Virus genome (UHGV): UHGV-1885740
Length of the DNA stretch: 14,785 nt
Reading direction: 5' to 3' (one strand)
From: a virus
Part shown: piece after piece, positions 7,692-12,124 of the stretch
Layout: each line of letters begins with the position of its first letter
Numbering within the stretch: the first letter of the stretch is position 1
The notes under the pieces: model-generated
Seen by the model: only the letters and a program-made list of their open reading frames with translations
Database searches by the model: none
Told to the model about the DNA's origin: nothing
Translations under genes and position numbers: made by a program

Positions 7692-7717
7692 AGGGGCTTA
7701 AAGCCCCTTTCTTTTTG
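7692..7717 (+). terminator. intrinsic terminator closing the rightward gene module
   Basis: Stem AGGGGC/GCCCCT with loop TTAA followed by TTCTTTTTG. Confidence 0.8.
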
Positions 7718-8322
7718 TCTCCTCTTTTCCTACCACAAATGGCCCCGCCTGGCAAATGGAATAATCAACAAGCCAGCAATTAACCCCACTGTACAAACAT
7801 ACATATAAAATAACTATTGCATAATTTTTCATTGTGTGGTAGCAGGGCCATTTTTACACGTTTTTCCTTCCAAAATTGCACGTAATGCAGCATTTGCACA
7901 AAATTTAACCTGATGCATATCTTCAATAGCTTGTCAACAACTAAAAATTCTTATAAGTCATACACTTACATAACTACAAAAGCGTTTTCTACGTGAAAAA
8001 TCGAGTATAACTATAGCCGCCAGATCTCAGAATTTACGTACGCTCGCCATTCTATAGCCTGCTAAGCATTTATTCCAACCATAGAATAACGGAATAGTCA
8101 ATACCTGCATAAAATAATTATTCGTGTAAACTGCATAACATAAATCGGCCCAAGTGTCAACATTTTTCGTAAACAGTCTGGAATTGTCACGTTAGGTTAC
8201 CATAAGCAGAGAAATCTTTAGTCGTCTAATGTTTACTGTACGTTACTATACTAACTGGAATCATTAGATGACTAATAGAAAGATAAGAAATAATTAACAA
8301 TACAATTATTCTATCTGTAACA

Positions 8323-8593
8323 ATAAGGCAACTATGCAAACGAATGGCATGGCGCGACGGAGTCGCGACATAATATAAAAGCAGTAACCATCACCCCCGT
8401 GATAGTTTGTCTGCAATCTATTAATCAGATCATAGTTGCCTTGTATTCAGTTAATCATGACATAACAAGCAAGGCAACTATAGATCTGCTAATAGTTGCC
8501 CTGCTTTTATATTATGTCATGCTAATTATAATCAGTGCGATTATTGTCATGTATAATTATTGTCATGCAAACGAATGGCATGGCTTATCATTT
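8323..8593. repeat. nested inverted/direct repeat element (about 270 bp)
   Basis: AAGGCAACTAT at 8325-8335 and 8471-8481, with inverted copies at 8432-8442 and 8492-8501; 18-bp direct repeat TGCAAACGAATGGCATGG at 8335-8352 and 8566-8583; 18-bp perfect inverted repeat 8367-8384 / 8501-8518; palindrome CGCGAC-GGA-GTCGCG around 8354-8368. Confidence 0.8.
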
Positions 8594-8610
8594 TTGAGTA
8601 AATAATCTAT

Positions 8611-8716
8611 ACGTTAACAGTAAGCTATGTAAACTATTGGGAATGTAAACAGTAAAGGTCATGAACAGTAAGCGAGCGAATAGTAATAGCGTGAATAGTG
8701 ACAGCGTAAACAGTCA
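8611..8716 (+). repeat. tandem iteron-like array (about 7 units, 15-16 bp period, core GTAAACAGT / GAAYAGT)
   Basis: Cores at 8614, 8629, 8645, 8661, 8677, 8692 and 8706; further isolated copies in both orientations at about 8169, 8843, 8989 and 9719. Confidence 0.75.
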
Positions 8717-9298
8717 TGCATGTCAATTATGTTCAGTGTGTTTAATGTGCTTAAAGTGTCATATTATGTCAGACAAGTTTTTCTCCTCTTTGTCAAGTGC
8801 TGCATGAAAAATTTACAAGCTTGTATGGTAGCATTTTTGCGGCCCTGTTTACATTCAGTGTTGTATGTATAATCCTTGTTGTGTGGGCGTTTAGACGTCT
8901 GGACGGTCAGAAGTCTGCAGGTCAATATCTAATCTATTGGCTGCTAACTATATCCCCCCACAAATAATAAGAAATATAATTGTTATGTGCGTAAACAGTA
9001 ACCTATGTTATCAATCCCTGTATGTATCGCCAGTGGTGCGCATAATGGGTATTATGTTAAATTGCCCGTAATGATAAAGATTCTCACAATGATAGGTATT
9101 CTCATTCACCCTCACAAAATAGATTGCAAATGTTGTGCCACTGTGTGAACGGCCTCACCTATTAATTTGCCTCACTGCCTCGATATTTGAGAATTATTAT
9201 AAGAATGAGAAGTATTCCCATTCCGTCCGCCTGGCAGCACTCCAGTCGCTACCGCTCATGACAGGGCAGAACTGGGCCCATTCAGATATTTCTGACTG

Positions 9299-9567
9299 AC
9301 TCTTCAGGTCTGTGTGGGAAAAGACAACCTCTCCGGCGGGACAGGGGGATATCTGAGGAGAAATTGCAGGTCAATTAAAAAATTTACGTGGTGTATGAAG
9401 CGATCTTCAGGCAAGGTATGTATTATGGGATGAAACCCTCTTCAGGCAATGATATTTGTGGGTGTGATATTTGCTGGAAAGCCAGATATGACGGGACTCC
9501 CGGCGGGGCAGGGGTAGTACAGACAGGGAAAATATGGGGATGTAGTTGGGTAAATTGATCAGGCAGG
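9299..9567 (+). repeat. cluster of CTCTTCAGG-family motifs plus a GC-rich direct repeat CCGGCGGG(R)CAGGGG
   Basis: CTCTTCAGG at 9300-9308 and 9438-9446 (also 9850-9858 and 10500-10508); GATCTTCAGG 9402-9411; GATCAGGCAGG 9557-9567; CTCCGGCGGGACAGGGGG 9331-9348 against CTCCCGGCGGGGCAGGGG 9497-9514. Confidence 0.7.
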
Positions 9568-10210
9568 TAGAGTATGGAATATGTTACAGGTATGTTAAAT
9601 AGGGAGGCTGAATATCTGTAGGATTTGTGTGTAAAATCAAAGACTTAAGTGGTGTTGCGGTATTTTCTATAAATAATTCAAGTTTAATAGGTAATATTTG
9701 TCTCTATTCGCTTTGTGTGGTAAACAGATTCAGATGAGATTGGTTTACAAGTGTATACATAATATACAAATTAAAGATACAAGAAACCCCCTCCCCCTTC
9801 GGCTACCATTCACCTTTTCCTCTGACTGGTACTTAAACACTTATTCAGACTCTTCAGGTTATCACCCATATATCATATGGCAGTGACTGGTGTCCTCCGG
9901 CCCCTCTTTCGTCACCCGTCCGCTTCGCCATGCTAATGCCATAGCCAATGGTTCGGTTGTTCACCCTGTTCACTCAGGTGTATCTCCATACCCCTTCAAA
10001 CCGAAGAGAACAGAAAACCCGAATTACTCGGTAAAAGAAAAGAGAAGAACTTAATTTTATCAGGATAGGCAAGAATGTCAAGGCATGACTGCTCACTAAA
10101 CAAGCAAACAGTCATGTGTGGAAGGTAAGTGATTGTGGTGGTGGGAAATTTAGTTGAAAGATGTGTTATAGGTGCGCTTCCAGCACTTTGGCCGGGCAGC
10201 TAATTGTGCG

Positions 10211-10426
10211 TCAGTCCAGCGGTTCATCCTCTACTTCACTGAAATCAATGTTCATGGTCTCTTCCCAACCATCGATCTCAGCACAAGAGTGGAGTTCTTT
10301 AGGGTTTACTCCCAAAGCCTCAGCAACAGAGTCTATATTTAACACCTCTGGCAGGTATGATTCATCGAATTCAAGGTAAATCAGGCCACGAGTGTTGTCA
10401 GCTCCACCAAATATTTCTATCTTCAT
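10211..10426 (-). CDS. hypothetical acidic protein (71 aa)
   Basis: ATG with GAGGAG 5 nt upstream; ORF track; the overlapping plus-strand ORF is S/T-rich antisense. Confidence 0.65.
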   Translation of the reverse strand: MKIEIFGGADNTRGLIYLEFDESYLPEVLNIDSVAEALGVNPKELHSCAEIDGWEETMNIDFSEVEDEPLD

Positions 10427-10547
10427 AAAATCTCCTCTGGAAATGAGAGTGTGAACAGGGTTTTATACGTCCCAATGCACAGGAATTATGCACGTTTGCC
10501 TCTTCAGGCCATGCTTTAGCATGAGGAACCTGTGTGGGCTCGGTGCT

Positions 10548-10787
10548 TCATAGTCTACCACCTCTGAACTCTTCGTGCTCAGGCATAATAGAGAACCAGA
10601 TATCTACGATGTCTTCCCACGTTAGGTCATCAGCCTCAGGATCTACCTGGAGCGAAGATGGAGAATCTTCAGAATCTAAGTTTTCCTCTTTCACTGGCTC
10701 AGCCAAGGGACATATAGTCACTCCTTTGGATGTCTCTTCAGATGCATGTGTGTGTTGATCATGTTCCACCCGTGAGTATTCCGGCAA
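10548..10787 (-). CDS. hypothetical acidic protein (79 aa as drawn; start uncertain)
   Basis: ORF-track frame begins at TTG with no Shine-Dalgarno site and overlaps the small ORF 10759-10860 by 29 nt in another frame; acidic C-terminal region resembles that of 10211-10426. Confidence 0.4.
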   Translation of the reverse strand: MPEYSRVEHDQHTHASEETSKGVTICPLAEPVKEENLDSEDSPSSLQVDPEADDLTWEDIVDIWFSIMPEHEEFRGGRL

Positions 10788-10860
10788 CAGCTGCTATGGA
10801 CGTAATGATCATCAGGATCACCACCAAAACCTCTGACAATGTTTTCATTGTGTATCCCAT
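10759..10860 (-). CDS. small hydrophobic peptide (33 aa, MGYTMKTLSEVLVVILMIITSIAAVAGILTGGT)
   Basis: ATG directly downstream of a strong minus-strand promoter (TTGACA-17-TAATAT); GGAG 3 nt upstream; below the ORF-track cutoff. Confidence 0.45.
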   Translation of the reverse strand: MGYTMKTLSEVLVVILMIITSIAAVAGILTGGT

Positions 10861-10880
10861 ATTCTCCAAATGATGTGTGG

Positions 10881-10909
10881 ATATTATCACTGGAGCGGTA
10901 ATGTGTCAA
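10881..10909 (-). promoter_or_regulatory. sigma70-like promoter on the minus strand (TTGACA-17-TAATAT)
   Basis: Reverse complement of 10904-10909 is TTGACA and of 10881-10886 is TAATAT, with a 17-nt spacer; it is the first promoter downstream of the minus-strand terminator at 11066-11097. Confidence 0.65.
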
Positions 10910-11065
10910 CAGAAACGCCGCGAGGGTTTGGTTAAAATCCGAGCGTATGGTGATTTGGGTCAAAACGGACGTGCGTTCTCGCTACGCTCGAAATATGGAG
11001 TTGTTTGTAGGGAGCTCTTAAACGCTCTGTAATGAGATTAACTGCCCAAGGTATGCAATCGTGCA

Positions 11066-11097
11066 CCAGATAAAGAAAAGGACGCCACAGAGCGTCC
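11066..11097 (-). terminator. intrinsic terminator (minus strand)
   Basis: Stem GGACGC/GCGTCC (11080-11085 / 11092-11097) followed on the minus strand by CTTTTCTTTATCT; 26 nt after the stop of CDS 11123-11422. Confidence 0.7.
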
Positions 11098-11122
11098 TAG
11101 GTGTCTTAAATTTGATATTTTG

Positions 11123-11422
11123 CTATACCCACGAGGGCTTATCAAGGTTGGAGTAGCTGAAAGGTGTCAAAAGGTGACTGTCAAAATCTCTCAAACTATC
11201 CAAATCTTTTTCCTCGTCCTGACACCATCTGTGCCTACATTTGTTGTTGTAGTGCATGGAATGCATAGCGTTCTGCAACTTAACAGGCACAAGTGATTCA
11301 GGAGTAGATAGTATTGTTGGGTATGCCAGAACCACCTCAAACAGTGGAAACACATCGAAACTAAAGTCTACCTCTGCAGAGGTTGATGGCATGTAGGAGT
11401 ATTTAGCCGCCTTTGTAGACAT
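11123..11422 (-). CDS. hypothetical protein (99 aa)
   Basis: ORF-track frame 11123-11434 begins at GTG; ATG at 11422 follows GAGGTGG; closely follows the upstream gene. Confidence 0.65.
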   Translation of the reverse strand: MSTKAAKYSYMPSTSAEVDFSFDVFPLFEVVLAYPTILSTPESLVPVKLQNAMHSMHYNNKCRHRWCQDEEKDLDSLRDFDSHLLTPFSYSNLDKPSWV

Positions 11423-11430
11423 AATCCACC

Positions 11431-11763
11431 TCACACAGGTTTGATAATACCTTCACCGAATAGCTCTTCGTATCTAATCTTGTCCGGATCCCACTCCTGG
11501 ATAATTTCGAAGACAATATCCAACCCAGGAACAATCACTTCTCCAGTGTCAAGCTTAGCAAGAACAAAACCGGAAGGTTGAATGGTTTCCCAGTTACGGC
11601 GATCAGAATAAAATACTTCGAAAATATCACCAACCTCAATCCGTTTCTGTTGCTCAAGATGCTCAAGGTTCTCTTTCATACGGATGCAGCGTATTTTTCG
11701 TGCAGGCCATAGACCACCTGCATCACGTTCATTCAATTCTTTTACAGTGATCGGTATACCCAT
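11431..11763 (-). CDS. hypothetical protein (110 aa)
   Basis: ATG with AAGGAG 7 nt upstream; ORF track. Confidence 0.75.
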   Translation of the reverse strand: MGIPITVKELNERDAGGLWPARKIRCIRMKENLEHLEQQKRIEVGDIFEVFYSDRRNWETIQPSGFVLAKLDTGEVIVPGLDIVFEIIQEWDPDKIRYEELFGEGIIKPV

Positions 11764-11818: not shown

Positions 11819-12124
11819 TTATTCTACAGAGCGTTTGAACAGAATGTCTGCCTCGGACATGTGCTCAACCTCTTCTTCGATTTTAGCTCGACGTTTTTCA
11901 GCCTCATAGCGAATATCGAACTCGGTAGCCACCAAAGATTTGATGAATTTAGGAGAATACAGGTGATCCTGCTTCTCAACGAGAATGATATCCTTAATGG
12001 CATCTTTCAGATCTTTAATCTGAAGTTGGAGTTCCACCAGTTCTTCGATTGTCTTGCGAAGGCGATCACGCTCTGCAGTGTCAGAAGGAAGAGAGGTGAA
12101 CAGTTCAACTTTAGATTTAGCCAT
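11819..12124 (-). CDS. hypothetical charged, probably helical protein (101 aa)
   Basis: ATG with AAGGAG 9 nt upstream; ORF track; heptad-like E/K/L-rich sequence. Confidence 0.75.
   Translation of the reverse strand: MAKSKVELFTSLPSDTAERDRLRKTIEELVELQLQIKDLKDAIKDIILVEKQDHLYSPKFIKSLVATEFDIRYEAEKRRAKIEEEVEHMSEADILFKRSVE

Follow-up and report, generated by a model that had tools for sequence, protein, structure and literature searches.

The window, that is, the whole stretch of 14,785 nucleotides of the virus genome UHGV-1885740 that was analysed, is assigned by sequence comparison to Vequintavirus, the rV5-like myoviruses of E. coli. The 900 bases around the locus described here matched 118 phage records at 80–98% identity, all of which belong to this genus; the 'Campylobacter phage' records among these matches carry the UNVERIFIED flag. 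Over the whole 14.8 kb the best match was phage ime, at 95.8%, so the window represents a distinct mosaic member of Vequintavirus. In phage rV5 the equivalent of the locus is ORF160–163, located at the end of transcription unit '82-163', and the region directly after it was termed non-coding by the rV5 authors (PMC3606486). The locus is the final promoter-driven unit in the Vequintavirus block of small genes. No tRNA genes were found in the window, and no Rfam matches were obtained for window positions 8500–11500. The features of the locus are as follows:

11079..11098, minus strand: intrinsic terminator AGGACGC-TCTGT-GCGTCCT with a T-tract, ending the upstream gene 11434–11123
10881..10909, minus strand: predicted sigma-70 promoter of the extended -10 class, orthologue of rV5 P162
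10759..10860, minus strand: gene of a single-pass transmembrane micro-peptide, phrog_34195 (tblastn, alignment, hydropathy)
10718..10762, minus strand: orphaned start of the acidic gene, from ATG 10762–10760, reading MINTHMHLKRHPKE and stopping at TGA 10720–10718
10748..10755, minus strand: (AC)4 dinucleotide run, (AC)3 in relatives; a 2-bp gain that causes a frameshift
10548..10721, minus strand: acidic gene body, shifted out of the frame of its ATG, phrog_16356
10548..10643, minus strand: near-invariant conserved C-terminal module DPEADDLTWEDIVDIWFSIMPEHEEFRGGRL with the predicted amphipathic helix WEDIVDIWFSI
10211..10426, minus strand: gene downstream of the acidic gene, 71 aa, phrog_12108, equivalent of rV5 ORF163, with its own GGAG

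The gene at 10211..10426 belongs to the same transcription unit as the peptide and acidic genes and is the last one before a long ORF-free region. Window positions ~7700–10200 correspond to rV5 104013–106618, where two gene blocks converge, a 2.6-kb region called 'non-coding' by the rV5 authors (PMC3606486). The best promoter-like site of the window is found there (TTGACA-16-TAAAAT with TG, 10081–10054, minus strand, 11/12). A repeat cluster near 8318–8584 looks origin-like or iteron-like; ATAGTTGCC motifs recur in it, together with a perfect 18-nt inverted repeat and a perfect 20-nt direct repeat whose copies are separated by 231 nt.

The terminator at 11079..11098 is nearly invariant across 17 relatives, is annotated as a terminator in phage Gotham and marks the beginning of a new transcription unit. 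The near-consensus promoter TTGACA-17-TAATAT proposed by the first-pass annotation was confirmed at 10909–10881 on the minus strand. It consists of a -35 element TTGACA (10909–10904), a 17-nt spacer ending in TG-A and a -10 element TAATAT (10886–10881); the TG at 10889–10888 makes it an extended -10 promoter, and the promoter scan scored it 10/12 with TG. The whole window contained 11 promoter-like sites scoring at least 10/12, compared with 3.7 ± 1.9 expected in random sequence, and four of these bore the TG, compared with 0.24 ± 0.47; all sites reaching this score were oriented as the local genes. The -35, TG and -10 were kept in 15 of the 17 aligned sequences, the spacer being free to drift (12/17 spacer-region columns variable), and in B9-1 and NHEP1 the -10 was replaced by TATGCT with the spacing unchanged. 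The orthologous rV5 promoter, P162, was predicted in 2013 at 103296..103341 (Table S4 in Kropinski et al. 2013, PMC3606486), and the same promoter is a PhagePromoter feature, also a prediction, in the record of phage Gotham. The enrichment over random sequence, the orientation, the conservation of the elements and the prior listing together argue against a chance match. Judged by its sequence, it is an ordinary early-type promoter, so far predicted only and previously annotated as rV5 P162. The concentration of sigma-70-like promoters among short hypothetical ORFs is a trait of the subfamily (PMC7344957). The gap of 20 nt between the -10 and ATG 10860 implies a leader of ~14 nt, with a predicted transcription start near 10874, and agrees with the earlier placement of the promoter about 15 nt upstream of the small ORF. 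A GGAG is present upstream of this ATG at 10867–10864 (minus strand).

Directly upstream of the -35 lies a non-coding block of ~85 nt (10910–10993, minus strand) that is almost invariant in 17 Vequintavirus genomes, with 5/89 variable columns as against 28/80 in the preceding stretch. The block holds an 8-bp inverted repeat, CGAGCGTA...TACGCTCG. The ORF called over it (rV5 ORF161, bas58_0138, FV3_00152) showed 5 synonymous versus 31 non-synonymous alleles and is broken by stops in three relatives, and it is not coding. The block gave no Rfam match, and its RNA stability was ordinary (z of -1.2 and +0.3). It may act on P162 at the level of DNA, for instance as a binding site for a regulator. 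Three genes upstream, a 101-aa protein (11819–12124, minus strand) matched phrog_639, 'transcriptional regulator' (E = 1e-21), and in Pfam gave only a weak, sub-threshold match to a GapR-like DNA-binding domain; it is a candidate for a regulator that acts on the conserved block.

The 33-aa transmembrane peptide ORF reported earlier at 10759–10860 was borne out by hydropathy, tblastn and the codon-position pattern. The ORF can be read from ATG 10860 (33 aa) or ATG 10848 (29 aa) and stops at TGA 10761–10759; the peptide sequence is MGYTMKTLSEVLVVILMIITSIAAVAGILTGGT, which reads MGYT-MKTLSEVLVVILMIITSIAAVAGILTGGT from the first ATG. The Kyte-Doolittle profile with a 19-residue window peaks at 2.95 and the GRAVY value is 1.5, which indicates one transmembrane helix, and the sequence contains neither Cys nor a lipobox. 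Among 14 intact relatives, the peptide frame showed 13 synonymous versus 7 non-synonymous alleles, while the other two frames over the same region contain stops; after the second ATG, 9 of the 12 variable sites of the peptide frame fall in codon position 3. Such a pattern indicates a real gene under purifying selection. The full-length peptide was detected by tblastn in 114/118 records at identities of at least 84%, and no tblastn match was found in phage records outside Vequintavirus. It matched the phrog_34195 profile with E = 4.6e-21 over positions 1–29 of 29, and the profile begins at the second ATG.

The peptide is annotated in HeinrichReichert, MaxBurger, Murica and ECP2303, and the start calls differ: the 33-aa reading from the first ATG is given in the BASEL records and ECP2303, the 29-aa reading from the second, with an RBS feature, in Murica. 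Both candidate starts have weak or poorly conserved Shine-Dalgarno sequences. Because residues 2–4 vary among the relatives (G/E/K, Y/C, T/A) and some of them (rV5, ECP26 and FV3) no longer have the GGAG that precedes the first start, ATG 10848 appears at least as likely a start as ATG 10860.

B9-1 and NHEP1 have lost the peptide gene, and in ECP26 an insertion interrupts it and truncates the peptide. A foreign insertion of ~60 bp, AATATGCTTATAGCATCGACACGTTCCAGCCATATGTCGATAAAGTCTTATTTTTTAAACA, occurs in these three phages at a point corresponding to window ~10790 (~701–770 in L010, ECP26; ~830–900 in L014, B9-1, and L015, NHEP1). In ECP26 it lies inside the peptide gene, between copies of a 13-bp direct repeat (TGTTGCCGGAATA), and alters the peptide C-terminus. 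In B9-1 and NHEP1, where the -10 and most of the peptide gene are deleted, the insertion provides the new -10 (TATGCT) at the 17-nt spacing. It was also matched in ECP32 and S127 BCL3, as a match to the insertion sequence itself. Each genome holds one copy, and an 82% match was found in an intergenic region of Salmonella houtenae. The insertion belongs to no Rfam family, the scan giving only chance microRNA-type matches elsewhere.

The start codon of the acidic gene in ~98/118 records is an ATG that shares bases with the peptide stop as ATGA (window 10762–10760). The overlap and the peptide stop are present in 13/16 aligned relatives, which are all those with an intact peptide gene. The acidic CDS is annotated from this ATG in HeinrichReichert, Murica, ECP2303, phita32 and 241Ecol014PP, and the records of HeinrichReichert, Murica (with RBS features) and ECP2303 show the two overlapping CDS as a pair. 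Read from the same ATG, all 15 other aligned relatives carry an intact ORF of 51–71 aa, and the differences in length between them are all multiples of 3 (+3, -9, -12, -24, -27 and -57 nt). Stop/start overlaps of the ATGA type are common in phage and bacterial operons. Since the acidic ATG overlaps the peptide stop, translation of the two genes is probably coupled. The pair has the properties looked for in coupled genes: a conserved ATGA, indels in gene 2 that are in-frame only and a third-position excess in gene 1.

The acidic protein is built of a start M-x-N-T-H..., a variable linker rich in Ser, Asp and Glu, and 31 C-terminal residues that are invariant or nearly so. In 19 cluster representatives, M1, N3, T4 and the C-terminal block DPEADDLTWEDIVDIWFSIMPEHEEFRGGRL are invariant or almost invariant. 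The linker showed 5 synonymous versus 12 non-synonymous alleles and zero stops, a pattern consistent with relaxed yet ORF-preserving evolution. The intact 70-aa version (HeinrichReichert/APECc02) matched phrog_16356 with E = 3.4e-49 over positions 1–70 of 70; the query was this sequence of intact relatives, not the frameshifted reading of the window. An exhaustive profile search against 1.84 billion representatives recovered only two clusters at 50% identity and no distant relatives, and Pfam gave no match for either protein. Both PHROG families are of unknown function and confined to Vequintavirus. An AlphaFold2 model based on 19 homologues is disordered except for the helix WEDIVDIWFSI at residues 48–58 (mean pLDDT 63, ~79 across the 11-residue helix), which is hydrophobic and amphipathic. 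An acidic DNA-mimic anti-restriction protein of the Ocr or ArdA type was considered and rejected, as there was no Pfam match and the model is disordered but for the one 11-residue helix.

A further ATG overlaps the acidic stop codon (CTATGA) and opens just MKHRAHTGSSC* (10552–10517, minus strand). This ATG is ATA in NHEP1, and the BASEL annotation calls a 32-aa ORF with a GTG start at the same place (bas58_0135; 10463–10561, minus strand). Neither ORF looks convincing as a gene.

The window keeps the ATGA overlap with the peptide stop and differs from the relatives by an extra AC five codons into the acidic gene: the junction reads ATGATCAACACACACATG instead of ATGATCAACACACATG or ATGATAAACACACATG. 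The change to (AC)4 shifts the frame: reading from ATG 10762 yields no more than a 14-codon remnant, and the acidic body no longer has a proper start. The open acidic frame of the window extends from TTG 10787 to 10548 (79 aa, pI 4.2), and, as described in the first-pass annotation, the ORF at 10548–10787 has only a TTG start and no Shine-Dalgarno site, and begins, in the +1 frame, within the peptide ORF. What looked like an ORF with no start codon is an acidic gene separated from its own ATG, and not a domain separated from the transmembrane peptide. The ORF at 10718–10963, which crosses the promoter and had been suspected to be spurious, is so in its upstream part: over the peptide region its frame showed 5 synonymous versus 15 non-synonymous alleles, and one relative has a stop in it. 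The final 14 codons of this ORF belong to the acidic gene, as its orphaned start.

Allele-specific searches of the 118 records found (AC)4 in one record only, that of MaxBurger (BASEL Bas54, MZ501093), while the (AC)3 alleles ATGATAAACACACATG, ATGATCAACACACATG and ATGACCAACACACATG were found in 42, 40 and 16 records, respectively. At the junction, about 19/118 records have further SNP variants, of which those in the alignment were read individually. Among the 60 records listed, the +2 length was seen only in MaxBurger. In IMG/VR, a degenerate pattern of the junction was found in one contig only, with an intact (AC)3. Clusters of 52-aa proteins, such as P0022, were considered as further frameshift alleles and rejected: their contigs carry an intact (AC)3, so the 52-aa forms are start choices of the gene callers.

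The window and MaxBurger are identical over 10993–10717 (277 nt) and diverge on both sides, and overall they are not mutual closest relatives. By this comparison, the shared (AC)4 is one inherited haplotype moved by recombination. Two papers, PMC13250531 on daunorubicin and the Aionostat preprint on Bas54, contain nothing on the peptide/acidic locus; what they show is the viability of Bas54 and the ready recombination of these phages. The frameshift is regarded as a genuine allele that circulates in nature.

MaxBurger differs from the window within the acidic frame by an ATA->ATG change (GGAGTGACCATGTGT), 5 nt after an AAGGAG, where the window keeps ATA, and its annotators start a 55-aa acidic CDS at the new ATG. 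This in-frame ATG is unique to MaxBurger: the ten next-best records are one base different, and the six of them that were read all have ATA or ATC at that codon, together with (AC)3. The new ATG, a single substitution in a single genome, is taken as a compensatory start, and as such it is an indirect pointer that the C-terminal module is worth expressing. In the window, the AAGGAG lies at 10726–10721, and the in-frame candidates for a restart are GTG 10721–10719 and TTG 10706–10704, the latter 14 nt after the AAGGAG. The GTG overlaps the TGA of the remnant as GTGA, and termination-reinitiation is therefore permitted at this position. The arrangement AAAGGAG-N7-ATG at 10713–10711 was rejected as a start of the acidic gene; this ATG, although well placed behind the AAAGGAG, opens only MSLG*, is out of frame here and in all relatives and is a coincidence of the coding sequence. 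The odds between low-level expression of the acidic module and a dead gene in the window are put at roughly even.

The locus is orthologous to rV5 P162/ORF162, HeinrichReichert bas58_0137/0136 and Murica CPT_Murica147/148, with 94–98% DNA identity, and shares with them the promoter, the peptide ORF, the acidic ORF and the ATGA overlap. The window differs from them in the -10 (TAATAT instead of TAGTAT) and in the (AC)4 in place of (AC)3. In the rV5 annotation the peptide gene is absent, and ORF162, at 101 aa, reaches too far upstream. MaxBurger bas54_0138/0137 carries the same (AC)4 and the identical stretch 10993–10717 and is distinguished by the ATA->ATG in-frame start. As in coupled overlapping gene pairs, the peptide stop and the acidic start share bases, and this is conserved across the genus, the coupling itself being predicted. 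Unlike in standard coupled pairs, the coupled start of the window opens a 14-codon ORF whose stop forms a second overlap (GTGA).

Taken as a whole, the locus is very probably a promoter-driven unit of two genes, both accessory, the second of which is frameshifted in the window by the (AC)4. The first-pass annotation had allowed for a single protein split by a +1 change, through sequencing error or in a programmed manner. The frame change in this proposal stands, although it is located inside the acidic gene, after codon 5; the fusion of peptide and acidic domain does not, and a single membrane-anchored acidic protein split by mutation or by programmed +1 frameshifting is barely credible. The acidic frame of the window is indeed open back into the peptide ORF in +1, and rV5 ORF162 (101 aa) and its phiWec191 counterpart (119 aa) are annotated with long N-terminal extensions, but these extensions lie in a frame other than that of the peptide, lack a transmembrane segment, and show 5 synonymous versus 15 non-synonymous alleles and a stop. 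The conserved peptide stop and ATGA overlap are what defeats the fusion: the stop is kept in every intact relative, and the acidic frame of the relatives is -1 relative to the peptide, not +1. A slippery motif is absent, and no fused homologue was found in 43 protein clusters or in the exhaustive profile search of 1.84 billion representatives. The homologues of the acidic protein have an ordinary ATG, and B9-1 and NHEP1 retain the acidic gene without the peptide, which for the fusion is in essence what the first-pass annotation had named as refuting evidence. Programmed ribosomal frameshifting was rejected on the grounds that the relatives read one uninterrupted frame from the ATG and that the two-frame state occurs in 2 genomes only. 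An error of sequencing or assembly, with the acidic gene in fact intact from ATG 10762, would agree with the presence of (AC)4 in 1/118 records against at least 98 with (AC)3; it is distinctly unlikely, since MaxBurger, isolated and sequenced independently, has the same (AC)4 on the identical 277-nt stretch and a matching new start codon that is absent from any in-frame genome. Four-unit dinucleotide runs are, moreover, not typical sites of sequencing error, which also counts against this explanation. Nor does the (AC)n run behave as a contingency switch for phase variation of the acidic gene, an extremely improbable role. A frameshift in a dinucleotide repeat right after a start codon would suit such a switch, but the repeat has only 3–4 units, one off-allele was found in ~119 genomes, and no other repeat lengths were seen in the allele searches, the listed records or the alignment. 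The occurrence of both (AC)4 carriers on one haplotype points to a single event.

The other proposal of the first-pass annotation, a toxin-like peptide followed by a separately initiated acidic partner, is upheld as regards the two genes, which in the relatives have a conventional ATG and the ATGA overlap, while the label 'toxin-like' lacks support. A membrane peptide with a co-translated acidic neutraliser or partner, in the manner of a toxin and its antidote, is unlikely. The peptide is short, very hydrophobic (GRAVY 1.5), placed behind a strong promoter and probably coupled through the ATGA to a conserved partner. Like the type I toxins Hok, TisB, Ibs and Ldr or the modulators AcrZ and MgrB, it consists of ~30 aa with one hydrophobic helix and lacks further domains; unlike them, it shows no sequence relationship and no conserved antisense promoter, and the resemblance is in form only. 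Neither protein resembles any Pfam family, type I toxin families included, and the sole antisense promoter-like site (10690–10718, plus strand, 9/12) is mutated or deleted in relatives. The two genes have also been lost independently, the peptide being absent from B9-1 and NHEP1, and the acidic gene being frameshifted in the window and MaxBurger with the peptide intact. A type I toxin-antitoxin system in the strict sense was rejected, as there was no conserved antisense promoter and no Rfam match. That the peptide and the acidic protein form an undescribed host-interaction module of Vequintavirus, composed of a membrane peptide and an acidic binder acting through its helix, is likewise unlikely. 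In such a reading the peptide could be a membrane-active effector, toxic or regulatory, with an identifiable partner.

In the preferred reading of two accessory genes, host sigma-70 RNA polymerase would start transcription at the extended -10 promoter P162, and the transcript would carry two separate small genes, the peptide followed by the acidic protein. The ribosome that finishes the peptide would restart on the acidic gene via the ATGA. The best guess places the peptide in the inner membrane, while the amphipathic helix of the acidic protein probably serves to bind a partner, be it the peptide or a protein of the host. In the window, the acidic C-terminal module would be made at a low level or not at all, low-level synthesis being conceivable by termination-reinitiation at the GTGA (GTG 10721) or from TTG 10706. 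The deletion of the peptide in B9-1 and NHEP1, its interruption in ECP26 and the frameshift of gene 2 in the viable MaxBurger suggest that both genes are dispensable, lineage-specific accessory genes of Vequintavirus.

The locus is already known from the P162 prediction, the PHROG families and the CDS pairs in GenBank, and the sole new element is a strain-level frameshift allele without the repair present in MaxBurger. Many GenBank records of rV5-like phages mishandle the locus: the peptide is missed, the acidic gene is given as 101–119 aa or shortened to 52 aa, and the spurious ORF161 is also called. Beyond such annotation hygiene the significance is small, as the apparent start-less ORF comes down to the gain of a 2-bp repeat unit in a dispensable accessory gene. 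If the two proteins did form a host-interaction module, comparing the window with MaxBurger would give a natural before and after, in which a coupled start was lost and then a new start was invented. For the biology of Vequintavirus, the unrepaired window and MaxBurger with its new ATG together offer a clean natural case of the replacement of a start codon after the loss of a coupled start.
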